Source: Methanobacteriota archaeon
GTDB lineage: Archaea; Thermoplasmatota; Thermoplasmata; SG8-5; JAGLSY01
Length of the DNA: 64,000 nt
Reading direction: 5' to 3'
Assembly: GCA_020697715.1 (NCBI GenBank)
Contig: JAEHCO010000001.1
Location: 512,001 to 576,000 of the forward strand
Shown here one piece after another: positions 8,873 to 39,796 of the stretch. The notes beneath the pieces are model-generated. The model saw nothing but the letters and a program-made list of their open reading frames with translations, did not search any database and was not told where the DNA came from. Every line of letters starts with the position of its first letter. Position 1 is the first letter of the stretch. The position numbers and the translations under genes are program-made.

Positions 8873-9751
8873 TTGATGAGAAAAACAAGAACCGACAAGT
8901 TAGGAAACATATATGAAACTCCTAAAGGTATCTTGGTCGCAGTGGGGGGAAACGAGGATAAGGAAAACGATTTAGATGTTCTTAGAAAAATAACCAAACT
9001 TACAACTAAAAAAGATCCAATTATTGAGATAATCACCACAGCCACAAGCACACCGAATAAAACTGGAGACGCGTACCTCAATGCTTTTAAGAAGATAGGC
9101 ATAACCAATACCAACCTTCTTCATATTAGGGTGAGAGACCAAGCAAATAGCATTGAATATCTTGAGAGGATCCAGAAGGCCGACATAATATTTTTTACAG
9201 GCGGCGACCAGCTCAAGATCACCAGCATACTTGGAGGCTCTCCTATTCTTGAAGAGATCAAAAGAAAATACTTCAATGAAAAATGTGTGATCGCCGGAAC
9301 AAGCGCAGGGGCGTCCGCAATGTCGGATACCATGATATATGGCGGTGAGAGCCATGAAGCCCTATGCAAGGGTGTGGTCCAGATGACTGGTGGTGTGGGC
9401 CTGATAAAACATATGATAATTGATAGTCATTTCATAAAAAGAGGCAGGTTCAGCAGGTTGATGGAGATAGTCTCTTCAAACCCAGGGTATATCGGCCTGG
9501 GCCTGGGGGAAGATACAGGAGTTATAATTCGGGATGGACACATATTGGAAGCTATCGGCACCGGTTTAGTAGTGATATTTGATGGCTATGGAATAAAATA
9601 TACAAATATCTCTTCTTTAAAAGATGGGGAAGCAATTGCGGTTGAGGGTGTTCTTGTCCACACACTTGGAAAGGGCCATGGATTCGATACCTTGACAAGA
9701 GAATATCTGAAACCATCTGGACTTAAAAAGTCCCTGAGGTCAAATGCATGA
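8873..9751 (+). CDS. cphB: Cyanophycinase (peptidase S51)
   Basis: LVAVGGNEDK, FFTGGDQ, GTSAGA (catalytic Ser), IIDSHFIKRGRFSRL, GLGEDT; 4-bp ATGA overlap with cphA. Confidence 0.93.
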   Translation: MMRKTRTDKLGNIYETPKGILVAVGGNEDKENDLDVLRKITKLTTKKDPIIEIITTATSTPNKTGDAYLNAFKKIGITNTNLLHIRVRDQANSIEYLERIQKADIIFFTGGDQLKITSILGGSPILEEIKRKYFNEKCVIAGTSAGASAMSDTMIYGGESHEALCKGVVQMTGGVGLIKHMIIDSHFIKRGRFSRLMEIVSSNPGYIGLGLGEDTGVIIRDGHILEAIGTGLVVIFDGYGIKYTNISSLKDGEAIAVEGVLVHTLGKGHGFDTLTREYLKPSGLKKSLRSNA

Positions 9752-22000: not shown

Positions 22001-25000
22001 GTGCCAGTTATTGCTATAGATGTTACAATCCGAGATATCAACATCCCCGTCCATCACAGCCTCGATATAAATTCCGGCTCCGCGGTTGTCATAGACATCG
22101 ACACCCGAGATGTCAATATCCATGGTATTGGCCAGAAGAGTGATCCCGTTTCCGTTCATCTCATCCCCGCCACCGCACCAGTTACCGTATAGGGCTCCTG
22201 CCACTGTGCCGCCGGTCATATCAAGTTCAAGAATGTTCTGGGCATTGATCTTCAAGGCACTCGCCTTTCCACCAGGTCCAAAGACATTATCATTCATGGT
22301 CGCGAATACATTCTGGGTCAGGGAGGCACCACTGCACCATTCCCCGATCCTGACACCGAAATCGTATATCTCATCTTCATCGTAAATCTCATCCCATATT
22401 CCCTGGACGATATTGTTGTTCATCTCAAGAGTTATATTATTCTGAGATGCTATCTTGATACCGCCTCCAGCATCTGCATCTTTCTGGAAATCCGCGATTA
22501 TTGTATTATCTGATATCCTGGCAAATATGTTATCAGCATAAGCAGACCCACCAGAAGCACCGATGGTGATGGCTCCTTCAAGCGATGCATCATTTGAGAA
22601 GATGGCAATGTGATTGTATCTTATGTCATTGCCAATGATATCAGTATATATGTCACCATTTCCAATTATGCTGATGATGCCGCCACCAGTTGGCCCGCCT
22701 CCGCCCAGGATATTGATCAATATTGTATTGTCCAGAAGGTCAGCACTGACATTTCCTGGCGTGCCCCAATCATTACCAATGGATATCAAGGTTCCAGTAT
22801 CAATGTCCAAAGATGCTACCATCTCCGTGTACTCGAAATAATTGTTGGATATTGTGGTATTGAGGAAATCATAGATATCCAGGTTCACAAAGGAGCACCC
22901 GTCCTCATCCATTATATTTTCCACAATGAACTCATTGTCTGTTACAATAACATCTCCAGTATCGGCATTGACACCAAGTAATCCCTCTGAGCCGATCCGT
23001 CCATTTCCATAATACTTGTTCATTGAGAAGAACACATCGGCATTGTCATTACTTTCAAGAATAAATACAGAATATAATTCTGGGAAGTCGGTACCCAGAG
23101 ATACAATCTCAATATCATTCCCAGTTATGATCGCGGTAAGGTCACCATTATCTGCATCTACATCAAACACTTCTCTGAGCTCGTTCACTTTTGATAGAAT
23201 GTGATTATCCATGATCGTGATATTTATGTCTATACTCGCATCAATATTGAATATACGGTCAATACAGTAACCGACCCCGTATGTTATGATATTGTTTCCA
23301 GAGAGATCTAAGGTCATGTTACCAGCATCTGCATCAAATTCTATGAAATCATTTTTATTTTCGTACATGTACGTGGTGGTCACAGTATCTGTCATCACTA
23401 TTGTGTTTTGACTAAAGGATGCGGCCATATTGTTATCGGCATAGAATTCAAATCCATCGAACATATACCTTTGGATATTGATATCATTGTTCTCAAATGC
23501 CAAGGTCATATTATCAGATTCCACATCGAACAAATGCGCTCCGTGTAAGGCAATGTCAACATCATTGTCTATGAAGGTGAAATCCATATCTCCGTTATCG
23601 GCATAGATCTCGAAGACGGGTTTCCAATCCTGTGTATAATCATCCACATGATAATCATCTATCAGATCTCCATTGATGTAGATATCATTCCCCTCAAATC
23701 CAAGGTCCATGTTCTGATCGAATGACTCAATGTAGAATAATGAAGTATATACCCAGGCATCGGTGATCGTGATATTATTATTGATCAGATCCAAGGTAAT
23801 ATTCTCATTGGCCGTTACATAGAACACCCACCTGTCATTATCCCTACAATAATCGTCACTTCCGATGATTATGTCATTGTTCTCTATAGTGGCGGTGATA
23901 TTTCCATCAGAGTATAACTCAAATGTTCTCCTGTGGTATTCGTCTACAATTATCGGTAGATAATTGTTTTTAATAATGGCATTAAGATTGTTGGAGCATT
24001 CGAAGTTGAAAGCAGATCCCTCATATGAGTATGGGAATGAACCTACATCGAACTCGATATAATTGTCCATGATGATCACATTGATATCCTCACAATTCCT
24101 GATACAGAATGAATCCCACATATCGGGATCGTTTGTAAATGATATGGCATTCCTTATGAAGTTGGCATTGATGGTGTCTGCATCTTCAAAGAAGAAAGCC
24201 TCTTTAAGATGATCGCTGTATATGTAGATGAAGCAATCAGCTATAGTGACATCCAAGACATCATTCGCAGTTATATACAATCCCTCATGAACTTCGTTGC
24301 AATAAACGTCCACCATGGTATTCTCAAAGGTTATGCTTGCATTTTCATTCCCACTGAACCAGAATATATGATATAATGAATCAAATTCCCCACCAATTGT
24401 ACAATCAATGAACAATGCATTCATGTCTCCACCAGCACTACCAAGAACTATTGCGTCCATATAGCTACCATCGATATCACAGTATATCTCATTCTCCTGG
24501 AAATTGAGGTTAACATCAGCATTATCAGACTCAAATGAGAATATTCCATCATTGTTGCCGGAAGTATCTGACTCGTCATTAACAATGTTGTTTAAGAAGT
24601 CAAAGTTCAATGTTTCTCCAGCTTCTATTTCGAAGACCGAACCAGAGGATATTTCCTCATGATTTATATCAAAGGAGTTATCGGTCATGGTCACATTCAT
24701 AAAATCATCTGCATACATGTAAATGAGATACCATAGGACCATCCAGCTTTTATCCCCATTGCAATCCATGACATTATCAACAAAATTCAATTCAATATTG
24801 CCATTGGAACGCATATACAGGTTCTCGGCCCAGCCAAAGCCATCTGAACCACTGAAATAATTGCCCGTCATATCGATGTCCAATAGGTTCCGGGCTCCGA
24901 AATTCTCGATCATCGTTCCAGTAGATTTATCTCCATTCCCGATAATGACATTGTCAGTGAAGGTCAGTGTGGTGTTGGCTGAGGTTGGTGAATCCCACGG

Positions 25001-26929
25001 CCCATACATTCCAATGGAAATCACACCACCATCGTAAACACCCCAGTTCTCCACTATGGTGTTCCTCTCCATGGTGACCATAAGCTCTCCATCGTTCGTG
25101 TCAATGTATAAAGCCGCCGCAGGCATATTACCAGGTCTGGGTTGGAAAGGCCAGTCACATAGGTCTGCATCGTTGCCCCATATCTCACAGTCTGAGATGG
25201 TGGCATAAACCAAGTTCGGTGCGTGAATGAACATCCCATGCCCACCAAATGAAGTGTTGACATTATCCAGGTCACATACTATTTGATCTGTTGCTCTTAA
25301 GAATACACCAGAGTAGTATGAGTTAGTTAAGGTCGAATCATAGATGGTTGCATCAATGGTGTTTGCTGTAATGATCTCAACACCGTGCTCACCGTTATCA
25401 TCAGCATTTATATCGTGCAGATCGATCACGACATCCTGAACCGCGATCACAATGCCAGAGCCAGTATTACTGAAGAACATATTATCCGCTATCATGCCGT
25501 TCACGACATAGTTGGGATTGGTCATGTTTCCCACACCAAGGCCGAACCCAGCGTTTCCAGCTATCATATTGTTGGCCAAAGTTGCGGGGAAGCAGCTGTC
25601 GAATATCAGACCGTTGTAGTTGTCGAATATCATGGAGTTCTGTATGGCCACACTGTTGGATTGAATATAAATTCCAGTGTTGCTCATGTAAACTGGATCT
25701 TCAACCACATTGGCCGCTCCATCCATCCACCAATGGACTGGAGGTGTTGTTATCAAACCAAAGAGATTGTCACAATCCATATCGAAGCTTATATCAGTCC
25801 CTGGCCCGGGTGTCACGTAGGTCATTGTCGGAGCCGCGCTGATCATTCCAGATGTGATGATGAAGTTGGTCCCTGTCCAAATGCAGGTCGCACCTGTGAA
25901 CCCTGGGGCAACAATGGTCTGTATTGCTGCTTGAATGAGGGCTGCCACTGCAGGCATATCGGCAGCTAGCGTGAAATTTATTGGGCCAATGGTCTGTGTG
26001 AAACCTTCGAACCCTATTGTGAAGTTCCCATCGGTGATGGTCTGCCAATTGGCAATGTTACTTTCGGCACCCACTCCTCCTGTCAAGACTGCAGCGAAGG
26101 TGGATGGAATCATACCTGAGATATCAGTTCCAACTGCACCACTATGTGTGACCAGAGCACTGACTGAAGATTCCATATAGTTGAGTGAAATATCGCTTCC
26201 AGATGTTATAGTAAAAGAATTTCCAGTCCATGCTACTTGAGCCGCTGCGAACCCTCCGGTTCCAATGACTCGTATCGCAGTCTGGATCCTGCCCCTAACA
26301 TCGTTCATGCTGCCCACTCCTGTGAAGTCTATGGGTCCAATGTCCGAGTAAACACCATCTATTGTGACTCCGAAGGTACCATTCGTGATAGCCTCCCATA
26401 TTAGATAGTCAGGCTCGGCATCAGTGTCACCCCACAATCTTCCGTTCGTTGTACTGAGGTAACCCATATTCTCGATCTTACTGTTCTGGATATCCACGAC
26501 CGCGTTCGGTCTGATCCATAAATTTGCCTCGTCATTCGTGTCATTGGTTGTGATTACAGAAGCATCGGTATCAAAGATCTCCGTGGGCATAAAACCGTCG
26601 CCCCCATCCTGCATTATGAGTGTTCCACCATCTTCCACTTCAATGTGAAACTGGCCAGGGAATGAGCAGTTCATCAATATCGTCGTATTGACGAGTGTCA
26701 GGGTCTCACCTGCTGGTATTGTCAGGTTACCTGTCAAATATATGGTCTCATTCTCAAAATAGTCATCAGGTGTGGTTACAACCCAATCACCCTCAATGAA
26801 CTGATCCCCATTTGTTATGTCATCTGGCGGTGGAGGTGCTGTGGCTCCTGAAACCACCATGTTCATGAACACTACACTCATCATTGCTAGCGATAATATT
26901 ATTGCGTATACCTTCCTCATCATAGTCAA
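19079..26929 (-). CDS. Giant (2616 aa) membrane-anchored surface protein: beta-helix repeats, PKD domains, Ig-like domain, TSP3-like Ca-binding repeats
   Basis: N-terminal signal peptide; long N/D/I-rich parallel beta-helix-type repeats; three PKD units (ADAGSDQTVDEDTVVTFDGSGS...PGTYNVTLTVTD); Big_5-like Ig domain; DTDGDGVDDIDDAFPNDP repeats; C-terminal TM helix and P/E-rich tail. Confidence 0.85.
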   Translation of the reverse strand: MTMMRKVYAIILSLAMMSVVFMNMVVSGATAPPPPDDITNGDQFIEGDWVVTTPDDYFENETIYLTGNLTIPAGETLTLVNTTILMNCSFPGQFHIEVEDGGTLIMQDGGDGFMPTEIFDTDASVITTNDTNDEANLWIRPNAVVDIQNSKIENMGYLSTTNGRLWGDTDAEPDYLIWEAITNGTFGVTIDGVYSDIGPIDFTGVGSMNDVRGRIQTAIRVIGTGGFAAAQVAWTGNSFTITSGSDISLNYMESSVSALVTHSGAVGTDISGMIPSTFAAVLTGGVGAESNIANWQTITDGNFTIGFEGFTQTIGPINFTLAADMPAVAALIQAAIQTIVAPGFTGATCIWTGTNFIITSGMISAAPTMTYVTPGPGTDISFDMDCDNLFGLITTPPVHWWMDGAANVVEDPVYMSNTGIYIQSNSVAIQNSMIFDNYNGLIFDSCFPATLANNMIAGNAGFGLGVGNMTNPNYVVNGMIADNMFFSNTGSGIVIAVQDVVIDLHDINADDNGEHGVEIITANTIDATIYDSTLTNSYYSGVFLRATDQIVCDLDNVNTSFGGHGMFIHAPNLVYATISDCEIWGNDADLCDWPFQPRPGNMPAAALYIDTNDGELMVTMERNTIVENWGVYDGGVISIGMYGPWDSPTSANTTLTFTDNVIIGNGDKSTGTMIENFGARNLLDIDMTGNYFSGSDGFGWAENLYMRSNGNIELNFVDNVMDCNGDKSWMVLWYLIYMYADDFMNVTMTDNSFDINHEEISSGSVFEIEAGETLNFDFLNNIVNDESDTSGNNDGIFSFESDNADVNLNFQENEIYCDIDGSYMDAIVLGSAGGDMNALFIDCTIGGEFDSLYHIFWFSGNENASITFENTMVDVYCNEVHEGLYITANDVLDVTIADCFIYIYSDHLKEAFFFEDADTINANFIRNAISFTNDPDMWDSFCIRNCEDINVIIMDNYIEFDVGSFPYSYEGSAFNFECSNNLNAIIKNNYLPIIVDEYHRRTFELYSDGNITATIENNDIIIGSDDYCRDNDRWVFYVTANENITLDLINNNITITDAWVYTSLFYIESFDQNMDLGFEGNDIYINGDLIDDYHVDDYTQDWKPVFEIYADNGDMDFTFIDNDVDIALHGAHLFDVESDNMTLAFENNDINIQRYMFDGFEFYADNNMAASFSQNTIVMTDTVTTTYMYENKNDFIEFDADAGNMTLDLSGNNIITYGVGYCIDRIFNIDASIDINITIMDNHILSKVNELREVFDVDADNGDLTAIITGNDIEIVSLGTDFPELYSVFILESNDNADVFFSMNKYYGNGRIGSEGLLGVNADTGDVIVTDNEFIVENIMDEDGCSFVNLDIYDFLNTTISNNYFEYTEMVASLDIDTGTLISIGNDWGTPGNVSADLLDNTILINILGGGGPTGGGIISIIGNGDIYTDIIGNDIRYNHIAIFSNDASLEGAITIGASGGSAYADNIFARISDNTIIADFQKDADAGGGIKIASQNNITLEMNNNIVQGIWDEIYDEDEIYDFGVRIGEWCSGASLTQNVFATMNDNVFGPGGKASALKINAQNILELDMTGGTVAGALYGNWCGGGDEMNGNGITLLANTMDIDISGVDVYDNRGAGIYIEAVMDGDVDISDCNIYSNNWHGIYLVSLNGVLDATGSIENVQVYDNGGNWNGDLPSVGSGLFTMNTIVDLESSFFDNPDAEFELNLIACSNVTALDTVFNKNKVSVEGSPASLIGDMAEGFQPAWQGVSNGSFRIGIDGVFADIDGLDFSGIVTMNDVADVIENGLQAVGSGGFTNATCIWDGMGFVITSGTVGRPSAITAATSHSGANGTDISGNVESSYSATLTGGTAADGDVLNWNSTNDGSFTISMDGSLWNLAGIDFTTATTMDDVAAIIQTALQAVPLTGFLAATCTWNGTAFTIMSGTQRPTTSITNVTAGTSGTDVSGLMDCGDNGTITITPVIYWMACANGVTIVPGNSSALTVQWYMHVKAEQQGTGRGLPNSMVEVRDINGVLVASGVTGMDGYVHWIIGQEYFQLNNSITMYTPHTISASKGASSGNVVSTIDMSKDIIIILDYVTGPPTADAGSDQTVDEDTVVTFDGSGSTDDVFWIINWTWDFIFDNQTMELYGVNPTYIFTEPGTYNVTLTVTDYEGFTDTAMVSIVVLDVTPPIAVAGPDQIVDEDTVVSFNGAGCTDNVGIVNYTWTFMNDTVQTLYGEAPSYVFTEPGVYVVTLTILDEAGNSATGTFTVTVNDVTPPTIIGGGLTMAQGSLVTLDASASIDNVGIIGYEWSFNDGANDVMLTGEIVNYTFTNIGNFTLTITAWDAAGNIGKLVTWIDIVDMTPPDVLVVAPGEAMEDVPLGWDLIIVFTEEMDRMSVQEAFDIDGANVSGFVWDLSDRYVTISFVELEHDSIYNFTVGASAMDIAGNLMGTTYTDSFQTAIDTTPVPVPTEDDTDGDGVDDIDDAFPNDPAASVDTDGDGQPDTWNPGYTAEDSTTNLTEDLDDDGDGVLDVDDDTPAGDPVDDAEDGDGGNDFMWIIIIIILVVIIVLQAMMKGKKPEDEVPAPEEPPVEETPAPEPAVEEAPAPEAEAAPEPEADVSSEEPGDVSVEDLTSE

Positions 26930-28344: not shown

Positions 28345-31300
28345 ATGGAAGACCCCCATCCAAAACAAATACAATTGATCGGTAGAGACGATGAACTGGA
28401 TCTATTGAAAGGAAATCTTGAAGATGTAATTGGTGGAAAAGGGTCAACGATCCTCATATCTGGTGAGGCTGGTATTGGCAAAACCAGACTTGTTGATGAA
28501 TTCCTTCTTCATGCTGTGGCCGAAGATATGAAGATACTGGCGGGATCCAGCTCTTCCGACACGATACATCCCTTTCTAACATTTTCCAAAGCCCTTGAAA
28601 AGGAAATTGACGATCCCTTGCTTCAAGATCAGGAATACAATTCATTTGCCGCTATTTTTGCCATAGACACATCTGGTATTATCATTGCCCAGGCATCGTC
28701 CACTGCCAATGACCTCGATGCGGATATATTTGCAGATATGCTTTCAGCAGTTCAAGATTTTATCAAGGATTCATTCGGTATCGCCAGTAAGCAAAGATCT
28801 GGATTGGGACGATTGGAATATGGCGATATGAAGATAATGATTGAACACGGCTCTCATTTACATCTCACTGCCGTGTTCAAGGGCAATGAACACCCGGACA
28901 TGAAGACATTGCTCAAAGCTGCTGTAAATTCTATAGAAGAAGGAAACGAAGAGATCCTTGAATCATGGTCTGGAAATACAGACAAAGTGCCTTGGATCCA
29001 GGAAAAAATATCATCACTGGCTGATGTCAAATTCCTCATACGGAGAGATCTGGAAGGCGTGAAGTTAGAAAATGAGAGGATCAGAATAGCTGATGAAGTA
29101 TTAGAACTCTTAAAATCGATATCTGGCAAAAGGCCCTTAATCCTCCTGCTGGAGGATCTCCATTGGGCAGATGAATCCTCATTATTTGTATTGAATTATC
29201 TTTCCCGGAATATCAAGGCAGAAAATATCATGATCGTGGGAACTCTTCGCCCCGAGAAGACCATCAGTCTTCAAACCACTCTGGAGAAGATGAGCCAAGA
29301 AGAGAATTTCCTACTCCTGCCTCTTATTCAACTTGGAAATACGTATGTATCATCTCTCGTAGAGGCTATGTATCCAGCCAATGAATTTCCAGAGAAATTC
29401 ATCAAACATCTATCCAGTGCCTGTGATGGCAACCCTTTCTTCGTTATCGAATTGCTCAGGCAGATGAAATTAGATGGAAATATCTCCACTAATGAAGGTA
29501 GCACCATACTCATTAGTCAGGATTATTCCATACCTGGTTCGGTAGATGAGATGATCCAAAGACGCTTGGAGAACCTTGACCCCGAATCCATGGCCCTTGC
29601 AGAGTACACCTCGTGCATTGGAAGGATGTTCGAGTCCAAGGCTGCAATGTCCATAAAGATAGCTCGTGATCCGGTCCAGGCACTTCAGAGATTGCAGGAT
29701 AGCGGGATCATCATCATAAATAATGGAACATCCGAATTTTGCCACGCGATCTTTCAAGATGTGATATACAAAGGCATTGGGAATAGATGGAAATCTTCCT
29801 ATCACAAACATCTTGGAGAATATTATGAAGAAGGATATGTGAATAGGACGGAAGAGGTTTTATATGATCTCGCCAAACATTTCTCCAGATCTAATGAATA
29901 TGAAAAAGGATTTGATTATTGTTATAAAGCTGGTGAGAAGGCGGAGAATATCTTTGCTTTGGAGCAAGCCATCAGCTTTTACAAAGATTCGCTCAACTCA
30001 CTCTTGAAGATCAGATCTATCGATGACCATGAAGGAAAAAGATTGGATCTTCTGGAAAGAATGGGTGGCATCAGTGCGATATCTGGGGATTATGATGGAT
30101 CATTAAGTATTTTCAACACCGCTTTGGAGATCGTGGATGACGATCAGAATAAGGCCAGGATATTGAGGAAGATCGGAGATGTTCATGTAAACAAAGGGGA
30201 ATTTGATGAGGCCTTGAAAATACTGTCAATGGCTAAAGAAGTGGTGGAAGAAGGAACAGCAGAATATGGCCGGATATTAATCAATGAGGCCAATCCTCAT
30301 TTAAGAAAGGGTGATTTTGACAAGGCTCTCCCACAACTTTCAGAGGCCATAGAGGTCTCGGAGAAAACTGGTGTGAGTCAGAAGGATATTGGCAATGCAT
30401 TAAGAGCCATTGGGAACATTCATTGGTACAAAGGAGATTATGACAATTCTCTCAAATTTTACAATAAGAGCCTTGAGATAATGGAAAATATAGGGGACAA
30501 GTATGGCATCGGATCCACATTGAATAATATTGGTAACGTGCACCATGCTATGAGCAATATGTCCAAGGCATTGGAGTATTTTGGGAGCTGCCTTGAGATA
30601 ATGGAAAAGATCGGGGGCAAACAGGGCATTGCCGCCGCCTTGAACAATATGGGCTTAGTGTATTACGAGATGGGGGAGCAGACCAAGTCTCTGGAGTTCT
30701 ACGAGCGCAGCCTGGATATAAAAGAAAAGATAGGGGATAAGCAGGGAACCGCACTCTCATTGAGCAATATTGGCAATGTGCATAATTTCACAGGCAATTT
30801 GCAAAAGGCACTGGAATTTTATGGGAATGGCCTTGGTATTATGGAATCAATAGGTGATAAATGGGGTATCGCGCTGTCCCTGAACAATGTCGGCAATGTG
30901 TATCATTCAATGGGCGATCTGTCCAAGTCTCTGGAGCTTTATGAGCAAAGTCTGGAAATAAGGGAAAGCATAGGGGACAAACACGGCATCGCCCGAGTGC
31001 TGATCAGATTAGGTAATGTTCATCATTCAATGGGCGATCTGGCCAAAGCTCTTGAATTCTATGAACGTAGTTTGAAGATATTTTTGGAAATTGGTGATAA
31101 GATAGAATCTATCTATCCATACTGTGGTCTTGCCGAGGTGTACATAGATCTCGGCAAGGCTCAACACTCTCTTGAAAATGCAGAGAAAGCTGTTGAGAAC
31201 TCCATAGAGACCATGTCACAACGTGAAGAGGGCAAGAGCCGCCGCATCCTTGGTATGGCTCATAGGGATCTGGGGAATTACAGTAAAGCGGAAGAGGAAT

Positions 31301-31503
31301 TTGAAAAAGCTAAGAACATTATGGACGAGATAGGATACAGAAGGGAGCTGGCCAAGCTCATCTATGAATACGCCTTACTGTACAAGATAAAAGATGAGCT
31401 AGATATAGCTCGCGAGTATGTGGAGCAAGCCCTATCTATGTTCGAAGAAATGGGCATGAGATTATGGGCGGAGAAGTGCCGTAAAGTTATGATCGTCCAG
31501 TGA
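28345..31503 (+). CDS. STAND/AAA_16-type ATPase with inserted roadblock/longin-like domain and C-terminal TPRs
   Basis: LIGRDDEL, Walker A GEAGIGKT, Walker B LLLEDLHWAD, GNPFF motif, ~40-aa TPR units (LNNIGNVH). Confidence 0.88.
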   Translation: MEDPHPKQIQLIGRDDELDLLKGNLEDVIGGKGSTILISGEAGIGKTRLVDEFLLHAVAEDMKILAGSSSSDTIHPFLTFSKALEKEIDDPLLQDQEYNSFAAIFAIDTSGIIIAQASSTANDLDADIFADMLSAVQDFIKDSFGIASKQRSGLGRLEYGDMKIMIEHGSHLHLTAVFKGNEHPDMKTLLKAAVNSIEEGNEEILESWSGNTDKVPWIQEKISSLADVKFLIRRDLEGVKLENERIRIADEVLELLKSISGKRPLILLLEDLHWADESSLFVLNYLSRNIKAENIMIVGTLRPEKTISLQTTLEKMSQEENFLLLPLIQLGNTYVSSLVEAMYPANEFPEKFIKHLSSACDGNPFFVIELLRQMKLDGNISTNEGSTILISQDYSIPGSVDEMIQRRLENLDPESMALAEYTSCIGRMFESKAAMSIKIARDPVQALQRLQDSGIIIINNGTSEFCHAIFQDVIYKGIGNRWKSSYHKHLGEYYEEGYVNRTEEVLYDLAKHFSRSNEYEKGFDYCYKAGEKAENIFALEQAISFYKDSLNSLLKIRSIDDHEGKRLDLLERMGGISAISGDYDGSLSIFNTALEIVDDDQNKARILRKIGDVHVNKGEFDEALKILSMAKEVVEEGTAEYGRILINEANPHLRKGDFDKALPQLSEAIEVSEKTGVSQKDIGNALRAIGNIHWYKGDYDNSLKFYNKSLEIMENIGDKYGIGSTLNNIGNVHHAMSNMSKALEYFGSCLEIMEKIGGKQGIAAALNNMGLVYYEMGEQTKSLEFYERSLDIKEKIGDKQGTALSLSNIGNVHNFTGNLQKALEFYGNGLGIMESIGDKWGIALSLNNVGNVYHSMGDLSKSLELYEQSLEIRESIGDKHGIARVLIRLGNVHHSMGDLAKALEFYERSLKIFLEIGDKIESIYPYCGLAEVYIDLGKAQHSLENAEKAVENSIETMSQREEGKSRRILGMAHRDLGNYSKAEEEFEKAKNIMDEIGYRRELAKLIYEYALLYKIKDELDIAREYVEQALSMFEEMGMRLWAEKCRKVMIVQ

Positions 31504-31519
31504 CGAATATCTCAGCATC

Positions 31520-33919
31520 TTATAAGAAGTCGTCCAGTGTCAGCTTCTTATCCGTCTTCTTGACCTCGACCTTTTCTTTCCTGGCTGGTGCGTCACCACC
31601 ACCATCTCCAAAGCCCCCCTCTCCGAAAAGTGTCTTCTGCTGGCTCCCGGTCATCAGGCTCTTCATGTCCCATCCGAATACCTCGGTGATACGAGAAAAT
31701 GTCATCGCCATCCTTCTTGCATAATAATCATAATCTGGTTTGTGGGTGAATTCCTTGCCATCGATGTAGGGCTCTGCCTCTATGGGTGACCTTTTTCCAT
31801 CTGTCACGACCCAGGAAACTTTCATTCCTGGAACGAACTCGAAGCCCATGGCCATCATTTTTTTGGCAGTTTGCACTGTTGTTTGAGAATCTGGATCCTT
31901 GTAAGCTCTGAATTCCTTGCAACTTCTTGATATCACAAGATCCTGAACAGGCGTCTTTTCATTGAGAGTGTCCGTGACAATGTCCCTTGCCAAGCGCACT
32001 GCCTCATCAGTTTCCTGTGCCAGTATGAGATCAAAGACCTTGGTCAGGCCTTCACTTTGAAGTGTGAAGGAATCCGTTCTCCGGGTCTCATACCCACGAA
32101 TGACCACTTTTTCCTCGGGCCAGATAACCTTCCCCACATACCTTTTCTTCGCTCCGTGTGAGAAAAGAGGATGGTATATGCCTTCGAATTCCAGCACCGC
32201 GCCTTCTTTCGAATATCTCTCGGCAACTGATTTACCTATCTCCACGGCCTCGTCCATAGTATAGCCAGGCGACTGGAAGAACACGGAATCCGTGTCACCG
32301 TATACGACCTTCAAATTCTCGCTTTCAAGTTGTGATATTATGGATTTAGTATTCTCGCGAGCGAAGCCCGTTATACTGGCTCCGATCTTCGGATTAGTGA
32401 ACCTGTAGAAAGCGGAGGCAAATACACCATAGAAGGCGTTCATCAGAATTTTGATGGCAAATTGCACCCCATCGTAATATCGTTTCTCTTCCTCAGTGCT
32501 GGCATTCTTCAATTTGATCTTTGTATCATCCCTTTCTGCCATCAATTTTTCAAGAACTCGGGGCAATAATCCTTCATATGTTCCCTTGTCAAGGTAGCTG
32601 ACCCCTGGCTCCGGGCTTTTTATCGTGCCTTCAGGGCTGAGAGTGGTGAAACAGATATTCTTGGCAATTATCAAACTGGGGTACATGGATTTAAAATCCA
32701 ACACACACACCCATTCATACAATCCGGGATCGATAGTGTGGACATATCCTCCTTCAATCTTGGAGGTCTTCTTGTGTCCGGATGTCACTGGCACTCCGAT
32801 CTTGTGTTTATCAGCCTCTCGGATCAATATGGAATCAATAAGTGTGGAAGTCCTTCCATTGACAACGTCATCCAATGGAAGTTTGGCCACCGTGGCAAGG
32901 TCCATTCCCTTTTCCAAAACAGCAATGTATTGAAGGATCTTCAAGGCCAATTCCGCATCCTTCTTGCAGTATTTTATCACTTTATCCTTATCATCCGCCC
33001 ATTCCTGATCTATATTGATAGGGTTGACATCGTGCTTCTTCTCTCCCAGATACTCCATCGCGACCGCGTTAAGGGTCTCTTTCTTCGGCCTAAGCTCTTG
33101 TTTGGCATTCCACCAAGCATCGGCTATGATCCGCCCATTAAGACGCCAGAATCGCCCTCCCACGGCCCTTGGATCGCTGAAGTTCCTGCCGATGTCTATC
33201 TTCACCTTGTGCAATTCCGCTCTTTCCAATACCATCGGAATATCATAACCATCAATATTGTATCCGGTTATGATGTCCGGATCCTCTCTTTTTATTACAT
33301 TGACAAAGTCCTGGAGTATGCTTTTCTCATTGCCATCAATACTGTAACTAACTATATCTGAGCTTCCGGTTGCGGAGATGGAATAACAGATAGTGTATAT
33401 CTCCTTTGTCGCGATACTATTCTCTATGTCGAAGCTGAAAATTTTAAGGGCTGGCTTGAATGGATCAGTTGTCTTGAAGTCTTTCGCATCCACCACTATA
33501 TCCGTGGTGTACATGCTCGTATCCACTTCACTGCCTTCCACTTCGAAACAGCTTCCCAGATCCATGTCATATATGAACCTGTGATGAAAAGGAATATCCG
33601 CTGCCAGCACAGTTGGCGGGAAATATTTTTTTCTGTAATCTGGAACCATCCAGGGATATTTTATCGTGACCTTGGCACATCTACGCGGTCCGCCATTGTA
33701 AAATAATTCGATATTGTCTTCCACATCCAAGACAATATCGTCTGACTTCAGGCCAGATAGCACTCCGGCAGTGGGTTCCACCAGGTAAAAATAAGGTTTG
33801 AAGCCATTATACCTAACAGTGATGGACTTGCCTGTATCCGTTTTGCCAAATAATTCAAGAGTGACATCGTCCCTTCTTGAATATGAGGCCGCTAACAATC
33901 GAACTTTCCATGATGTCAT
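31520..33919 (-). CDS. polB: Family B DNA polymerase
   Basis: ExoI FDIEN, ExoII GYNIDGYD, DFKSMYPS, KILMNAFYG, YGDTDS, KKRY; C-terminal PIP-like QKTLF. Confidence 0.96.
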   Translation of the reverse strand: MTSWKVRLLAASYSRRDDVTLELFGKTDTGKSITVRYNGFKPYFYLVEPTAGVLSGLKSDDIVLDVEDNIELFYNGGPRRCAKVTIKYPWMVPDYRKKYFPPTVLAADIPFHHRFIYDMDLGSCFEVEGSEVDTSMYTTDIVVDAKDFKTTDPFKPALKIFSFDIENSIATKEIYTICYSISATGSSDIVSYSIDGNEKSILQDFVNVIKREDPDIITGYNIDGYDIPMVLERAELHKVKIDIGRNFSDPRAVGGRFWRLNGRIIADAWWNAKQELRPKKETLNAVAMEYLGEKKHDVNPINIDQEWADDKDKVIKYCKKDAELALKILQYIAVLEKGMDLATVAKLPLDDVVNGRTSTLIDSILIREADKHKIGVPVTSGHKKTSKIEGGYVHTIDPGLYEWVCVLDFKSMYPSLIIAKNICFTTLSPEGTIKSPEPGVSYLDKGTYEGLLPRVLEKLMAERDDTKIKLKNASTEEEKRYYDGVQFAIKILMNAFYGVFASAFYRFTNPKIGASITGFARENTKSIISQLESENLKVVYGDTDSVFFQSPGYTMDEAVEIGKSVAERYSKEGAVLEFEGIYHPLFSHGAKKRYVGKVIWPEEKVVIRGYETRRTDSFTLQSEGLTKVFDLILAQETDEAVRLARDIVTDTLNEKTPVQDLVISRSCKEFRAYKDPDSQTTVQTAKKMMAMGFEFVPGMKVSWVVTDGKRSPIEAEPYIDGKEFTHKPDYDYYARRMAMTFSRITEVFGWDMKSLMTGSQQKTLFGEGGFGDGGGDAPARKEKVEVKKTDKKLTLDDFL

Positions 33920-36843
33920 GTACCCTCTCCCATATCCATCAAGGCCTTTTTAGTCTTTTCAGTCCATATGTTCATATTTGCCTTACTGAAGATCTCCGCG
34001 GCCTTCATGAGTTCGGATCTAGCCTCATCAATATTTCCCTTGATCTTCTGTAATATTCCCATCTCGAAGATCAACATACCCAGTAGGGTGGCATCACCCA
34101 CTTCATTGATCAATACATTGGCTTTTTCCATCAATATCTCGGCCTTCTCAATGTCACCAATGTCTCTGTATGCCATTCCCTGGATCATGTAACACACTCC
34201 CTCATCTCTTTTGGCTCCCAATTCAATTGAAAGGTCAAGAGCCAGGCCAGCATATTCCAATGCTTTTTCACATTCTCCTATATCTATGAAGGTATCGGCC
34301 ATTCCATAATAGTTGTGTATCAGTAGTTGCTTATCTCCAATCTCATTACATAATTCAATGCTTTTTTCATGATATTCAAATGCCACATCATATTCCTCCA
34401 GGCTCTGGAATATGTACGCCATACTGCCAAGGGACCAGGAATATCCACTCTTATCACCGATCCTCTTCAATATCTCAAGGCTTTCCTCATGATACTGCCT
34501 TGATAGATCCAGGTCTCCCAGCGTGTGATATATGCTTCCTATATTGTCAAGAGTTCCCGCACGGCTATGTATGTCCTCTCTTTTTTCATCAATGGCCAGA
34601 CATTCCTTGAAGATATCCAATGCCTTATCGTTCTCTCCTCTTTCCATGTAGATAACAGCGATATTGTTCAGTGAACTTCCTCTTCCTCCAATATCTCCGA
34701 TCTCTTCTCTTACAGAGATGGCCTCGTTAAATGAGGCCAAAGCTTCGTCATAATCTCCCCTGAACCAGGATATCAATCCCATGTCGTGGGTGGCTTGAGC
34801 TATATCGATCCGACTGTCAAGTTTGACAGCCAGATCGATAACATCTTTTATGATCGGTTGGGAGCCATCATAATCTCCAGTTCGGATATAGGTGATACCC
34901 AACATTCTTTTCAATCTCGCAGTTTCTATATTCATACCATCATTCATGATATCGAGACCTTTCTGGCAGGCCTTCCTGCTTTCTTCATATTCTCCCATTT
35001 TCTCATGCACGATCGCGATCTTATAGTGGGCATTGGCCTTTTGTTTATCACTCATAGATATTTTTAATATATCTGAATAAAAAGCAAAAGCATCATCAAA
35101 ATTGCCAATTATGGTATGATTGTCACCGAGTCTCTCATTCAGCATAACTCTATTTTCAAGCACATCCTCCGCTCTGATATGGTTCAGGGAATTCAATGCA
35201 CTTTCATAGAGATTTATGGCCAGTTTTGGTGAGAAAGAGCTTTCGGCCAGTTCTCCACCACGGATGGAATATTCAAAAGCTTTTGAATATTCCAAAGTTT
35301 TCAAATAATGATGAGCCACCTCATACACAGTATCATCAAGTTCATTCCAATAGATACCTTCAAAATGTTCACCCAGGATCTTATGATATTTTATTTTCCA
35401 TCTCTGGTCAATGCCATTGTATATCACTTCCTTGAACATGGTTCTTGCAAATTCCCCGAATCTATCATCAGCCATGATAAGACCAGATACGGTCAGTTCA
35501 CCCATGATCTTGTCATGCCCCTGTATGAAATCAAGTGATAGGGTGGTGGTGATATCGAACCTCTGGCCAATGCATGATAAGAATTCCGCCATGCTCAATG
35601 CATTGGAATCCAGATGATCCAGTCTATTGAAGACTATAGCTTCCAGAGAATCAGGCGGACTATAATCCTCATTCACGAGCTTGGCTCCCCCACCATCATC
35701 AATTATGCAATTATCTCTGATCATGGATTCCAGGGTTTCGATAAGGAAAAGGGGATGCCCCTCTGTTTCCGAGCAGATACGATCGATGAACTTATCTGGA
35801 AACTCATTGTTTGGATACATGTTATTTATTATTTCAATAATATACTTTCTCTCCAGCTCGAGTACTGGCATCAATATGCGAGATCCATCCACGGTTCCTT
35901 TTATGAGCTCCTGAAGCCCACCATCAGCATCTGGCTTCACCGAGCAAAGCATCAATATGTTCTTGTCCCTGATATTTCTCGCAATATAATCTATTACGAA
36001 TTGTGATGACTCATCTGCCAGATGGATATCATCGATAGCCAGTACAACTGTTCTTTCTCTTGATAATTCAATGAGTTTGTTAAGCAGATGATCCGACACC
36101 CTCACTCTCTCCATTTCCAGATCAGATCCTTCTATGTCCTGCCTGACCTTGAATTTAATTGATGAAAGCCTATCGACATAATCCTGGATGACCTCCATAT
36201 CTTGGAGTTTGCCGCTCCAAGATCTGATGATATGGCCATGTTGTGATTCGATATCCCTGATCATATTCTTCATGACCCTTTCCATATCTGGATGTCCAGT
36301 ACCTTTGTATATCGAGGTCAGGAATATTCTTTCCCCATTCTCTATCAATATGCTCATATCTCCATATTCCATCTTCTTTATACCGCTCTTCTTTTCCAAA
36401 GATGTATCCAGTGAATTTCTGACAAAATCCTGCACAGCGGAGAGCATGCCAGCAAAAATATCGGCATCCATGTCGCCTGCCATCATGACGGAGGATTCAG
36501 CCAGTAATAGACCTGAGCGATCTATTACGAAGACCTTGGAAAATGATACATGGTCCTTTGGACGGAATAAAGGCTCAGATAGATATTTTTCAAAGGCAGT
36601 GGAAAATACATTGAATGGTTTGTATTCGCTTATGTCGGAATAGGCTTTTATTATCTTTATGTCATCCGTATCCTGGCTTTCCAGAAAATGATCCATGAGA
36701 ACGGATTTTCCAATTCCAGTTATCCCTGTTAGAAAGATCGAAGATCCCTTCATATCTCGGGCATCTGAAAGGCATTTATCGAGGATACTAATTTCATCCT
36801 CTCTTCCCATCAATTCAATTCTATTAGAGTAAGATGGGGACAT
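33916..36843 (-). CDS. Paralogous STAND/AAA_16-type ATPase with inserted roadblock/longin-like domain and TPRs
   Basis: LMGREDEI, GITGIGKS, LAIDDIHLAD, GHPLFL; same insert as 28345..31503 (DADIFAGMLSAVQDFVRNS...EYGDMSILIE); ATGA overlap with polB. Confidence 0.88.
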   Translation of the reverse strand: MSPSYSNRIELMGREDEISILDKCLSDARDMKGSSIFLTGITGIGKSVLMDHFLESQDTDDIKIIKAYSDISEYKPFNVFSTAFEKYLSEPLFRPKDHVSFSKVFVIDRSGLLLAESSVMMAGDMDADIFAGMLSAVQDFVRNSLDTSLEKKSGIKKMEYGDMSILIENGERIFLTSIYKGTGHPDMERVMKNMIRDIESQHGHIIRSWSGKLQDMEVIQDYVDRLSSIKFKVRQDIEGSDLEMERVRVSDHLLNKLIELSRERTVVLAIDDIHLADESSQFVIDYIARNIRDKNILMLCSVKPDADGGLQELIKGTVDGSRILMPVLELERKYIIEIINNMYPNNEFPDKFIDRICSETEGHPLFLIETLESMIRDNCIIDDGGGAKLVNEDYSPPDSLEAIVFNRLDHLDSNALSMAEFLSCIGQRFDITTTLSLDFIQGHDKIMGELTVSGLIMADDRFGEFARTMFKEVIYNGIDQRWKIKYHKILGEHFEGIYWNELDDTVYEVAHHYLKTLEYSKAFEYSIRGGELAESSFSPKLAINLYESALNSLNHIRAEDVLENRVMLNERLGDNHTIIGNFDDAFAFYSDILKISMSDKQKANAHYKIAIVHEKMGEYEESRKACQKGLDIMNDGMNIETARLKRMLGITYIRTGDYDGSQPIIKDVIDLAVKLDSRIDIAQATHDMGLISWFRGDYDEALASFNEAISVREEIGDIGGRGSSLNNIAVIYMERGENDKALDIFKECLAIDEKREDIHSRAGTLDNIGSIYHTLGDLDLSRQYHEESLEILKRIGDKSGYSWSLGSMAYIFQSLEEYDVAFEYHEKSIELCNEIGDKQLLIHNYYGMADTFIDIGECEKALEYAGLALDLSIELGAKRDEGVCYMIQGMAYRDIGDIEKAEILMEKANVLINEVGDATLLGMLIFEMGILQKIKGNIDEARSELMKAAEIFSKANMNIWTEKTKKALMDMGEGT

Positions 36844-36851
36844 ATAAGCCC

Positions 36852-38042
36852 CTACCTCCCACTGACAATTGTGATCACGTCACAATTGTCCAATTCATGA
36901 TCTTGCCCTATCACTCTTTTTGTCCTGGCATCTATCGCCCTGATGAACTTATCACCAAGATCTGTGTGGACCTTGTATGCCAGATCCTTCGCATTACTGC
37001 CCTTTGGCATCAAATGAGTATCTGGGAGGACCCGACCTTCTTTATCTGTTAGCTTTCCCTCATCTTCAACAGGATAGACATATATGAGGTCCAGTATGTC
37101 GAATATCGCCCTTTCCAAACATGGCTGCACTCCTGTTCCATCGAATTTTGTCATGAATTCCGCTATCTTCTTAAGGCCAGCGATCTGTCCAGCAGATAAT
37201 TTTGTTTCATCCACTATCTTGAAATGCGAGTCCCCTGGCACATAATCTATAAGGCCAGCCCCACCTGCTCTTCTCAGGGCCAGTTCGTATTCCGCCGATA
37301 TCATGATGATGGTCCTATCTTCCATCTCCTCAAGTTTTTTAATATTCTCCTCGGGAGCGATATCGCATTTATTGGCGGCGATGATTATTGGTTTTCCCGA
37401 TCTCTGGACCTCTGTGGCGAGCTTGAGGATCTCGTCATCACTCCATTTATCTGGATTTCCTTCCAGGCCAGCGGCACGTAATGCTCTGGTTATCTGGATC
37501 TCGGATATAGCCAGACCGGCGAGCCTATCATGAAGTGCTTTTTCTATCTTGATACCGACCAGCACGCTCTGTCTGCTGATCCTTTTCCAATCCTTCATGA
37601 TTATATTGCGTATCCAGTATACGACCTCCTTCTCCAGGAATTCAATATCCTCTTCTGGATCATGCTCCCCTATCCTGCATGGCGTGCCATCTATCAGAGT
37701 CCCACCACTGGCATCGATGATATGGATAAGAACACTCGCCTGCCTCAGGTCATCCAGGAACTGGTTTCCCATTCCCTTGCCCTCCCAGGCGCCTGGAACA
37801 AGGCCAGCAACATCAATGGCCTTGATGGGTATCAGCCTGGTACCTCCCTCACATTCGGAATTTCGAGGTGTACAAGTCACCTCGAATTCCTGGCACGGGC
37901 ATTTTCCACGAACATAGGCCACACCCACATTTGGCTCTACAGTTGTAAATGGATAATTAGCGATCTCCGCATTCGCCAGTGTCAGTGCTGAGAACATGGT
38001 TGATTTACCCACATTCGGTTTTCCTATAATTCCAATGTCCAT
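36852..38042 (-). CDS. ychF: Obg-family ATPase/GTPase YchF (archaeal type)
   Basis: GKPNVGKST, ANYPFTT, DVAGLVPGA...GMGNQFLDD, NKCD; C-terminal TGS domain. Confidence 0.93.
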   Translation of the reverse strand: MDIGIIGKPNVGKSTMFSALTLANAEIANYPFTTVEPNVGVAYVRGKCPCQEFEVTCTPRNSECEGGTRLIPIKAIDVAGLVPGAWEGKGMGNQFLDDLRQASVLIHIIDASGGTLIDGTPCRIGEHDPEEDIEFLEKEVVYWIRNIIMKDWKRISRQSVLVGIKIEKALHDRLAGLAISEIQITRALRAAGLEGNPDKWSDDEILKLATEVQRSGKPIIIAANKCDIAPEENIKKLEEMEDRTIIMISAEYELALRRAGGAGLIDYVPGDSHFKIVDETKLSAGQIAGLKKIAEFMTKFDGTGVQPCLERAIFDILDLIYVYPVEDEGKLTDKEGRVLPDTHLMPKGSNAKDLAYKVHTDLGDKFIRAIDARTKRVIGQDHELDNCDVITIVSGR

Positions 38043-38161
38043 TTACCTACCCCACCACAATATAAGACTAGGTATAGAAATAAGTAATGTAGAATATGGA
38101 TAATGTCCTGGCTTGCTGATAATTTGTAGATATCGATATTCCCGATCTGGTGCTTGGAAGC

Positions 38162-39622
38162 TCATTCAAGTTCTTTCAAACAGATATCCAGGTTCTTCTC
38201 CGCATCCGCATTGCCCGGTGATATTTCCAATATCTTGCCATAACAATCAGCGGCATCCTGCCAATTTTTCAATTGAAATGAACCATTGGCCAATGTGAAC
38301 CACGCAGGTAGCGAATCTGGTCTTGATCGAAGAACTTCTGATACAGAGCTCATGGCCTTGTTTCCCTCACCCAGTTCATAATGTGATTGGGCTCTCATGC
38401 AGAGGGCCATCTCATCATATGGATTGATCTTCAAGGCTTTTTTGTAGTATGATATAGCTTCTTCATGTCTGCCCTTTTTGGCCAGTGACTTCGCCCTGTT
38501 CACAAGCCCACTAAAATCCTTTGGCTCGGTCAATTTCTTCTTTTTCTTCTTTCCTTTATCGGATTCATCCAGTTCGATGATCTCATCGTCCATGGCCCCC
38601 AGGGTCTCACTCCTGTAATAGTAAACATATCGTCCTTTTTTCTCCTTGTTCACCATCCCCCTCTCTTCCAGGTCTTTCAATCCTCTCTGGAAGGTGGATT
38701 CTGACATATCGTCCTTGACACTCTTCTTGATATCAGATCTGGAGATGGGATCATCCCCTATGCTCTCGAAAAGTTTCTGCTGGCTCTCATTGAGATGATC
38801 CGAGATATGATCATATTCACTCTCGATGATCTCCATTTCCGAGCTCAATTCCTGCAGATCGGCCTCCATCTTTTCCTGAACATCCTTTGGCTTTGATTTT
38901 TTCTTCTTTGTCCTTGTCTTTGCTGGCATTTCTTCCTCTGCCAAGCTTTTCTTCAAGATATTGAGTGCCTTCTCAGCCTTGGTGAAATCAGGATTGAGCC
39001 TATGAGCCCTTTCCAGGCATATGATCGCCTTACCGAATTTCTTCTGACCTATCAATGCCTTTCCTTTGATATACCAGCCCTCTGCAAAGGTCGGTCTCTC
39101 TTTCAGAACACCATCAATAAGTTCAATGGCTCCAGAATAATCCTTGGTATGTGTCAATGACACAGCTAGATTGTTCATAGCTGCCACATATCCAGGATCT
39201 ATCTCCAAGGCCTTTTTGTAACACGCTATGGACTCATCATGCTTGTCCATCTTGGCCAGTAGGTTTCCTTTATTGTTCCAGGCGGCTTCATGATCTGGTC
39301 TGAGCTCCAGCGCGGCATCGTAATATTCCATGGCCTCGCTATAATTCTTCATCTTGGCATATATCATTCCGATATTGGAGATGGCATCGATATACACCCC
39401 GTCCAGCTCCAGAGCTTTAAGGTGGCATTTTAGAGCTTCTTGGTACTTGCCAACTATGGCAAGAACCAAGCCTTTATTATTCCAAGCAATGGGATTATCT
39501 GGATCGGTCTTTATCGCGGCATTGTAGGACTGCATAGCGGGTCCTAGCTCGCCTTTCCTATAATGATCATTACCCTTGGCTATTACCTTTGAGACATTTG
39601 GTTTTGAGAAAGGCCTGGCCAT
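38162..39622 (-). CDS. TPR - winged-helix - TPR protein
   Basis: N- and C-terminal TPR blocks around a wHTH-like segment (SESTFQRGLKDLEERGMVNKEKKGRYVYY). Start may be 39622 or 39664. Confidence 0.8.
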   Translation of the reverse strand: MARPFSKPNVSKVIAKGNDHYRKGELGPAMQSYNAAIKTDPDNPIAWNNKGLVLAIVGKYQEALKCHLKALELDGVYIDAISNIGMIYAKMKNYSEAMEYYDAALELRPDHEAAWNNKGNLLAKMDKHDESIACYKKALEIDPGYVAAMNNLAVSLTHTKDYSGAIELIDGVLKERPTFAEGWYIKGKALIGQKKFGKAIICLERAHRLNPDFTKAEKALNILKKSLAEEEMPAKTRTKKKKSKPKDVQEKMEADLQELSSEMEIIESEYDHISDHLNESQQKLFESIGDDPISRSDIKKSVKDDMSESTFQRGLKDLEERGMVNKEKKGRYVYYYRSETLGAMDDEIIELDESDKGKKKKKKLTEPKDFSGLVNRAKSLAKKGRHEEAISYYKKALKINPYDEMALCMRAQSHYELGEGNKAMSSVSEVLRSRPDSLPAWFTLANGSFQLKNWQDAADCYGKILEISPGNADAEKNLDICLKELE

Positions 39623-39796
39623 TCCTATAGAACCCACGATAATACCGTATTTGATCATATTCAATTCAAGACGCTCCTACCACCGAGGTATGTGGATTTG
39701 TATCTAAATACTTAACGCTTTATGGATGATAGATCACGATGGTAAAACCATGATGAAAATTGATAGATGATGATCATCCATGAATAACAATTTTGA

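Follow-up and report, generated by a model that had tools for sequence, protein, structure and literature searches.

The DNA analysed here (the window) is a stretch of 64,000 nucleotides from a Methanobacteriota archaeon placed by GTDB in the Thermoplasmatota (contig JAEHCO010000001.1, positions 512,001 to 576,000). It contains two paralogous genes, P0001 and P0002, whose products are ATPases of the STAND class (signal transduction ATPases with numerous domains) ending in an array of tetratricopeptide repeats (TPR). In both proteins a domain of about 135 residues is inserted between the Walker A and Walker B motifs of the NTPase, and this insert is predicted to adopt the longin fold. The insert is a member of a large family of archaeal domains for which databases hold no model, and carriers of this family are often found next to genes for Ras-like GTPases. 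The Ras link is the strongest functional clue found for the insert, which may act as an output module, that is, as a GTPase-docking platform that is presented by the ATP switch and couples it to a Ras-like GTPase. We regard the chances of this reading as about even.

P0001 (28345..31503, + strand) codes for 1052 residues and P0002 (33916..36843, - strand) for 975, and the two proteins can be aligned from end to end with 35% identity over 923 columns (BLAST). Pfam detects AAA_16 in P0001 (E 9.5e-21), split in two stretches, together with TPR_12 (6.6e-107). Likewise, AAA_16 appears in P0002 as two separated stretches that are followed by a dense TPR array. The AAA_16 scores are 75.4 and 62 bits, the Pfam cut-off being 32.6. 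The Walker A motif, located from sequence, occupies residues 40-47 of each protein (GxxGxGKT in P0001, 28462..28485, + strand; 36703..36726, - strand, in P0002) and is kept in 83 of the 84 family members aligned. The Walker B strand of P0001 and the motif after it are at 29137..29175 (+ strand, residues 265-277), the Walker B itself (hhhhED) being formed by residues 265-271, and the corresponding region of P0002, aligned to P0001, is at 36010..36048 (- strand). In the 84 rows of alignment A3, position E270 is glutamate in 71 and aspartate in 12, and D271 is aspartate in 76. A helical domain with the GxP motif and a winged-helix arm come next in P0001 (29335..30000, + strand, residues 331-552); both were delimited by the secondary structure of a model of the first 552 residues (pLDDT, predicted local distance difference test, 88.4; pTM, predicted TM-score, 0.77), in which the NTPase is followed by a helical region and then by a helix-strand region. 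G362 and P364 of the GxP motif are nearly invariant in the family alignment. The TPR sensor array of P0001 (30001..31500, + strand) contains nine Pfam TPR_12 stretches and TPR_MalT.

With Walker motifs, GxP motif, winged helix and TPR array all present, P0001 and P0002 are STAND NTPases of the AAA_16/MalT-like branch. The 552-residue model matches Avs3 (the top Foldseek match), the archaeal STAND-TPR protein 6mfv, Apaf-1, CED-4, MalT and NRC2. A preliminary description of this DNA, made from its sequence, had considered that both proteins are normal STANDs outside the insert, with a GxP motif and a TPR sensor, and the matches to Avs3, 6mfv, Apaf-1 and MalT agree with it. The NTPase begins at residue 10, and according to Pfam and NCBIfam no domain precedes it and nothing follows the TPRs. 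Neither protein contains a classical effector domain detectable in Pfam and NCBIfam scans, as the same description had reported, and the NCBIfam scan returned only partial, sub-threshold TPR or STAND matches.

The core of the longin-fold insert spans 28630..29028 (+ strand, residues 96-228) in P0001, and the insert of P0002 spans 36148..36546 (- strand, about residues 100-232, from alignment A1). Inserts of about 130 residues between Walker A and Walker B had been proposed in the preliminary description; both open reading frames (ORFs) were confirmed and the edges of the inserts differ by a few codons at most, and the motif that the two inserts were said to share is visible in the BLAST alignment of P0001 with P0002. 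Within the P-loop domain, the insertion point comes after helix alpha2 and before the Walker B strand. The same genome holds one AAA_16-TPR paralog without insert, a protein of 819 residues in which AAA_16 is contiguous (13-199). In BLASTP, residues 11-84 of P0001 match residues 13-87 of this paralog, and residues 241-352 match 144-262. Since the uninserted paralog aligns on both sides, residues 85-240 of P0001 (nucleotides 28597-29064) replace a linker of 56 residues.

The inserts of P0001 and P0002 are 42% identical, and a search of the own genome with the insert as query recovers that of P0002 at E 2.1e-36. Among the paralogs of this genome, the mean identity of the insert is 0.38, compared with 0.39 and 0.38 for the two halves of the NTPase core. 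In a library of 1.84 billion proteins, 2524 cluster representatives match the insert at E<=1e-3. A segment so similar between both proteins, conserved like the NTPase core and matched by so many clusters is not a chance insertion. Nevertheless, the family is invisible to Pfam: searches with the two inserts gave no Pfam family at E<=10, stand-alone carriers of the domain match none at 0.01, and a profile built from 18 copies (alignment A1) gave, against the sequences of the PDB, a best E of 0.024, to unrelated proteins. The nearest neighbours in a protein atlas, which are weak leads only (scores 0.78-0.94), are mostly Asgard clusters named hypothetical, "Roadblock/LAMTOR2" or "clathrin adaptor small chain". 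The public names of STAND-type homologs, which come from Thermoplasmata/Thermoplasmatota metagenome-assembled genomes, are only "tetratricopeptide repeat protein", "AAA family ATPase" or "predicted ATPase".

The fold of the insert was predicted with AlphaFold2 on a 41-row alignment (pLDDT 86.1, pTM 0.78). The topology of the model is beta-beta-alpha-beta-beta-beta-alpha-alpha (DSSP: E7-17, E22-27, H35-55, E65-68, E71-77, E81-88, H93-115, H125-135), and the same order of strands and helices recurs for the insert inside the 552-residue model. The Foldseek comparison of the insert, a check suggested by the preliminary description, has as best match a longin domain, that of Sec22b (1ifq, E 2e-4, TM-score 0.64/0.70), and further matches are AP sigma, zeta-COP, VAMP7 and the LAMTOR/Rag C-terminal domains. 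In a VIA-align search, independent of Foldseek and in which Z values of 7-8 are common background by the tool's own note, the VAMP7 longin domain (4afi) reaches Z 12.6 (root-mean-square deviation 2.9 over 122 residues), Sec22 (3egd) 12.2, a CPLANE subunit 11.7, AP-3 sigma 11.4, the Lokiarchaeal longin protein (8yqg) 10.1 and Mon1-Ccz1 about 10. MglB (Z 9.1) and other Roadblock proteins (about 8) are below the longin domains. The top 24 rows are longin-type throughout, and the 50 matches listed are all longin, Roadblock or related GTPase-platform proteins. The longin matches of Z 10-12.6 span 118-137 residues at 4-13% identity in the structural alignments.

Longin and Roadblock domains differ in that the former have no N-terminal helix and carry an extra C-terminal helix (Tran et al. 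2024, PMC10933270, in the sections available). In the model of the insert there is no N-terminal helix and the extra C-terminal helix is present, and for this reason we assign the insert to the longin rather than to the Roadblock type. The roadblock/longin-like fold anticipated by the preliminary description is thus in line with the predicted topology and with the Z values (longin 10-12.6, Roadblock 8-9), and can be defined more precisely as longin type. In the models, then, the insert is of the longin fold class, with a five-stranded antiparallel sheet and matches above those of unrelated folds. An identity as Roadblock/LC7 domain (PF03259) was rejected, there being no Robl_LC7 match and no N-terminal helix in the models. 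The insert is not a member of any of the longin Pfam families tested (Longin, Clat_adaptor_s, Sedlin_N, Sybindin, SRX and Fuz_longin). As it matches no Pfam family or PDB profile, it is placed within the longin fold class but outside the curated sequence families.

The 2.1-Mb genome contains 18 copies of the insert domain. A count of the paralogs and other carriers, also suggested earlier, gave 11 copies in STAND-TPR paralogs and 7 in other settings. Ten of the STAND-type carriers have 965-1056 residues, with the domain at residues 90-275, and the remaining one is a degenerate STAND-TPR protein of 804 residues. The non-STAND carriers are diverse: a stand-alone protein of 164 residues, a 182-residue protein with a zinc ribbon, a 235-residue protein, a DUF835-domain-TPR protein, a multi-pass membrane protein with the domain at its C-terminus, and two giant surface proteins in which the domain forms a cytoplasmic tail after a single C-terminal membrane helix. 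One of these two has 2321 residues with CarboxypepD_reg and PKD domains, and the other has 1176 residues and DUF11.

The same settings are found in other genomes. A set of 260 carrier proteins contains 206 domains inserted in STANDs and 77 domains of other kinds; these 77 often occur in tandem. A transmembrane-like segment is present at most 80 residues upstream of the domain in 19 of 54 non-STAND carrier proteins, and other carriers are surface proteins with CARDB, PKD, Big_9 or He_PIG domains. A recurrent architecture is that of large CARDB proteins with 2-3 tandem longin-like domains and a C-terminal DUF5915 (P0004, P0054, P0057, P0072, P0082 and P0139). The domain is present in each of 21 order-level relatives, with 3-26 matches per genome. 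A maximum-likelihood tree of 135 copies of the domain places the 61 STAND-type copies, without exception, in one supported clade (96/86) with 11 others; the tree was built on 125 columns, its bootstrap is not fully settled and little else in it is resolved. The single clade fits one capture of the domain by a STAND ATPase, followed by paralog expansion.

P0001 and P0002 flank the gene of a family B DNA polymerase, PolB (31520..33919, - strand; Pfam DNA_pol_B 5.5e-59). The preliminary description had raised the possibility that both proteins act as a heteromeric pair. However, they are two of eleven STAND-type paralogs, and among the matches listed their arrangement around PolB recurs only in a genome of the same genus, so a dedicated pair is unsupported.

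Ten genes of this genome score well above the Pfam cut-off for the Ras family (E 1e-27 to 1e-41). Their products score as Ras/Roc and their G motifs are of the eukaryotic type. Three of the 18 domain carriers are located within 340 bp of a Ras gene, and all three are among the seven non-STAND carriers. Two Ras genes in the same orientation come after the gene of the membrane protein with a longin tail, and the DUF11 surface protein and the 235-residue protein are each convergent with one Ras gene. When the seven Ras loci are placed at random, 0.46 neighbours are expected among the 18 carriers, and the probability of three or more is 0.008. Two true Robl_LC7 genes are present elsewhere in this genome, separate and away from the longin-type domain.

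This coupling extends over the phylum. In a sample of 201 genomes, with a Ras threshold of E<=1e-15, 35 have the domain, 37 have Ras, 34 have both and 163 neither; the domain alone occurs in one genome (a weak match) and Ras alone in three. As a descriptive measure over the same genomes, the copy numbers of domain and Ras correlate with a Spearman coefficient of 0.71. Among the matches listed (the best 150 of 342 for the domain and the best 150 of 228 for Ras), at least 12 same-contig pairs of domain and Ras genes lie within 3.2 kb of each other, in 12 other genomes. Eight of these loci were fetched; in one of them the ORF had been taken from the wrong strand, and the other seven pairs were confirmed, of which three are STAND-longin-TPR genes and four are longin-tail surface proteins beside Ras. 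In two of the three (L035 and L036), the STAND-longin-TPR gene is divergent from a gene coding for a 335-residue TPR-Ras fusion, and in the third (L037) it is convergent with a gene for a 272-residue Ras protein.

Some other features of these GTPases were observed. The ten Ras/Roc-type GTPases of the genome, which are coded outside the window (L025-L031), share 37-63% identity with the G010 reference protein. About half of them have a conserved C-terminal extension of about 100 residues, and in several a serine replaces the catalytic glutamine of the DxxGQ motif. The TPR-Ras fusions (L035:2861-3865 in G032 and L036:1737-2741 in G010) have N-terminal TPRs and a C-terminal Ras-like GTPase domain. 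Four genomes of one genus of the same class (G121, G164, G168 and G184) have one domain match and one Ras-like gene each, which are not adjacent. Their carrier ORFs have about 1500-1670 residues in three cases, and G168 has an open frame of 300 residues. This set may be a minimal version of the domain-Ras system. The gene of the uninserted AAA_16-TPR paralog (L043:2757-7280) adjoins two genes, one for a GvpD/KaiC-like ATPase and the other, a separate one, for a Roadblock/LC7 protein; in this neighbourhood the inserted form may have a "split" counterpart.

The reading of the insert as an output module is based on the fact that longin and Roadblock platforms are known to serve GTPases, and on the genomic coupling to Ras. 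Platforms of this kind that act on GTPases include MglB-MglA, TRAPP, Mon1-Ccz1 and Ragulator, as treated in the available portions of two papers (PMC4316618, PMC10933270). In the mechanism that we infer, the TPR arm would bind a ligand, ADP would be exchanged for ATP, and the NTPase domains would oligomerise as in other STAND proteins. The inserted longin domains would then be gathered or exposed as a platform, which may dock a Ras-like GTPase and regulate it as GTPase-activating protein (GAP), guanine nucleotide exchange factor (GEF) or scaffold. GTPase binding, the direction of regulation and STAND oligomerisation are thus putative parts of this mechanism. Protein-protein signalling as output, which the preliminary description had proposed, is likewise putative, and the genomic link to Ras-like GTPases is not part of that description.

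Several observations weigh against the insert being such a platform. A shared fold need not mean a shared function, and some longin domains, in SNAREs, have no action on GTPases. Relatedness among the 201 genomes makes them non-independent, so that their co-occurrence and correlation are overstated and only descriptive. In this genome, the 11 STAND-type carriers all lie more than 8 kb from any Ras gene, and nine of them are flanked by unrelated housekeeping genes with no recurrent partner. In other genomes, by a rough reading among the matches listed, about 4 of about 27 carriers in ORFs of 850-1100 residues adjoin Ras, and the three confirmed STAND-Ras pairs had been chosen for their apparent adjacency. 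Therefore, Ras adjacency is strong for the domain family but only occasional for its STAND-inserted form.

In a rival explanation the insert would be an internal regulator of the STAND ATPase, for example as a lid, as an element for dimerisation or as a client-binding lobe. It would tune the binding or hydrolysis of ATP or the oligomerisation, as domain II does in RuvBL1/2, and would have no small-GTPase partner. The domain is located inside the P-loop fold, it is conserved as much as the core and no STAND-type copy of this genome has a Ras gene nearby. In addition, the N-terminal model also matches chains of RuvBL1/2, ATPases with a domain inserted at the same place, and its pTM suggests a defined placement of the insert with respect to the NTPase. 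However, the same domain family occurs outside ATPases, either stand-alone or on the tails of membrane proteins, the family taken together is linked with Ras genes, and three STAND-type carriers adjoin Ras or TPR-Ras genes. We consider an internal regulator unlikely, while giving it real weight. A like-with-like adaptor, in which longin pairing would link STANDs to stand-alone longins and to receptor tails as death-fold or TIR domains do in NLRs (nucleotide-binding leucine-rich-repeat receptors), is quite improbable in our view. The diverse architectures of the 18 copies in one genome, among them receptor-like surface proteins in which a transmembrane helix directly precedes the domain, would suit an adaptor, as would the upstream transmembrane-like segments of 19 of the 54 non-STAND carriers and the tandem copies within single proteins; dimerisation is also known for Roadblock/longin domains (Tran et al. 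2024, PMC10933270, in the part available). The heteromeric pair of P0001 and P0002 would be a special case of such pairing, but this couple is not conserved beyond the genus. Neither does pairing by itself explain the co-occurrence with Ras, although it is compatible with a GTPase-docking output module.

Two further explanations have very little probability. One of them takes P0001 and P0002 for Avs-like antiviral STANDs, in which the longin domain would serve as an effector or decoy of an unusual kind. Avs3 is the best Foldseek match of the N-terminal model (E 1.3e-7) and the paralogs are many and have variable TPR sensors, but this match has a low TM-score (0.27) and is one to the generic STAND fold. 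Moreover, PADLOC models match generic TPR repeats only, none of the 21 order-level relatives lacks the family, and the neighbours are housekeeping genes rather than defence islands, P0002 itself being wedged between the gene of an Obg-like GTPase and PolB. Membership in the Avs/antiviral group was consequently rejected: no defence model, no N-terminal effector and a housekeeping context. The other explanation, which we also find hard to credit, is a small-molecule sensor that would signal a metabolite either to the ATPase or to proteins of the membrane, given that longin, profilin and GAF-like folds are related. Conserved polar positions on the first helix and its neighbours (D125, D127, D142, S143, W208 and G210) would suit a sensor, but no GAF or PAS domain appears among the 50 VIA-align matches listed, all of which belong to the longin, Roadblock or GTPase-platform group.

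P0001 and P0002 can be compared with several known systems. MalT-type STANDs (E. coli MalT 8bob, 6mfv and the cyclase/kinase-AAA_16-TPR fusions of TIGR03903) share with them the P-loop, the GxP helical domain, the winged helix and the C-terminal TPRs, but P0001 and P0002 have no helix-turn-helix, cyclase or kinase effector and carry the 135-residue longin insert. None of the listed fold matches of the N-terminal model is described as having a longin or Roadblock domain, and only RuvBL1/2 have an insert at that place. RuvBL1/RuvBL2 (Rvb1/2) have a folded domain II between Walker A and B, in a position equivalent to that of the longin insert. However, they belong to a different ATPase class, lack a TPR sensor and differ in the inserted fold, which in RuvBL domain II is OB-like.

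The predicted topology and fold of the insert, and a link to small GTPases, are shared with eukaryotic and Asgard longins (Sec22b, VAMP7, Ykt6, the N-terminal domains of AP sigma/mu, zeta-COP, sedlin/synbindin of TRAPP, Mon1-Ccz1, Fuzzy/Inturned, and 8yqg, the Roadblock-Longin protein of Lokiarchaea). In contrast to all these, the insert has no detectable sequence similarity, occurs in Thermoplasmatota and is found within an ATPase or on the tails of membrane proteins. MglB-MglA and the actinobacterial conservon (CvnA-D) likewise combine, by gene adjacency and co-occurrence, a Roadblock-superfamily domain with a Ras-superfamily GTPase (PMC4316618, in the text available), but the domain described here is of the longin type, with no Pfam Robl_LC7 match, and the GTPases score as Ras/Roc. 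In Asgard archaea, many "NPRL2-like longin" fusions to two-component signalling domains have been reported (Liu et al., preprint 10.1101/2020.10.19.343400). By their description, those longins resemble the insert family in being abundant and shuffled into archaeal signalling proteins, and the accessible part of that preprint makes no mention of a longin inserted in a STAND, although the insert family may already be among the longins that it covers.

Full-text literature searches returned no paper with a longin or Roadblock domain inside a STAND/AAA_16 ATPase and no description of the insert domain family in Thermoplasmatota. The longin-STAND combination goes unmentioned in the available parts of Makarova et al. 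(PMC11188069), of a preprint on ParA-immunity (10.64898/2026.10.19.760177) and of PMC13734099, and the words roadblock, longin and MglB have zero occurrences in Kaur et al. 2020 (PMC7159879). The parts are known, namely the AAA_16 STAND, the TPR sensor, the longin fold and the pairing of Roadblock domains with GTPases; the combination was not found in these literature searches.

STAND ATPases normally signal through a terminal effector domain. In P0001 and P0002 the sole candidate output is a fold of the GTPase-docking kind, set in the core of the ATPase; through it, an ATP switch would be linked directly to GTP switches of the Ras type. The family to which this fold belongs is large, with up to 20 or more copies per genome, yet it has escaped Pfam. 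Longin modules and expanded Ras-like sets are usually seen as Asgard or eukaryotic hallmarks, and they also form a coherent system in Thermoplasmatota. A broader picture, which we put forward tentatively and hold to be somewhat doubtful, is a three-tier network of Thermoplasmatota made of receptors with longin tails, longin-STAND ATP switches and expanded Ras/Rab-like GTPases, in which the STAND oligomer would be a ligand-gated GEF/GAP platform. V4R (Bet3-like) and KaiC-like proteins are coded beside the same GTPase genes. Such a network, if real, would be the prokaryotic equivalent of the eukaryotic longin platforms TRAPP, Mon1-Ccz1 and GATOR/FLCN, to which it might also be related by evolution.

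Two tandem pairs of Ras genes (L028:3259-5647 and L029:2765-6822) are situated beside other signalling genes. One pair adjoins a V4R-DUF835 fusion, and the other a KaiC-like ATPase and a zinc-ribbon-TPR protein. Since the V4R fold is Bet3/TRAPPC3-like, Ras, longin and V4R parts co-reside in one non-Asgard genome.

With respect to the remaining genes of the window, an Obg-like (YGR210/YchF-type) GTPase is coded directly upstream of P0002 (36852..38042, - strand; Pfam YGR210-like_G4, MMR_HSR1 and TGS). P0002 starts 8 nt past this gene and overlaps the start of PolB by 4 nt. The genes of a TPR protein, the Obg-like GTPase, P0002 and PolB form an apparent operon (33916-39664, - strand), an odd site for a signalling ATPase. 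The Obg-like GTPase was not taken up as partner of P0002, because according to Pfam it is not Ras-like and it belongs to what we take to be a universal translation-associated family. On the same strand, an ORF of 2616 residues (19079-26929) with PKD, K319L-like PKD and Big_5 domains and three DUF3383-like stretches presumably codes for a surface protein; it is absent from the longin-domain matches of the genome. An archaeal cyanophycin-synthetase-like gene (9748-12372, + strand) contains Cyanophycin_syn N-terminal, ATP-grasp and Mur ligase domains. Finally, an unusual fusion (40442-42457, - strand) joins the middle and C-terminal domains of a Mur ligase to an HhH-GPD base-excision glycosylase domain.

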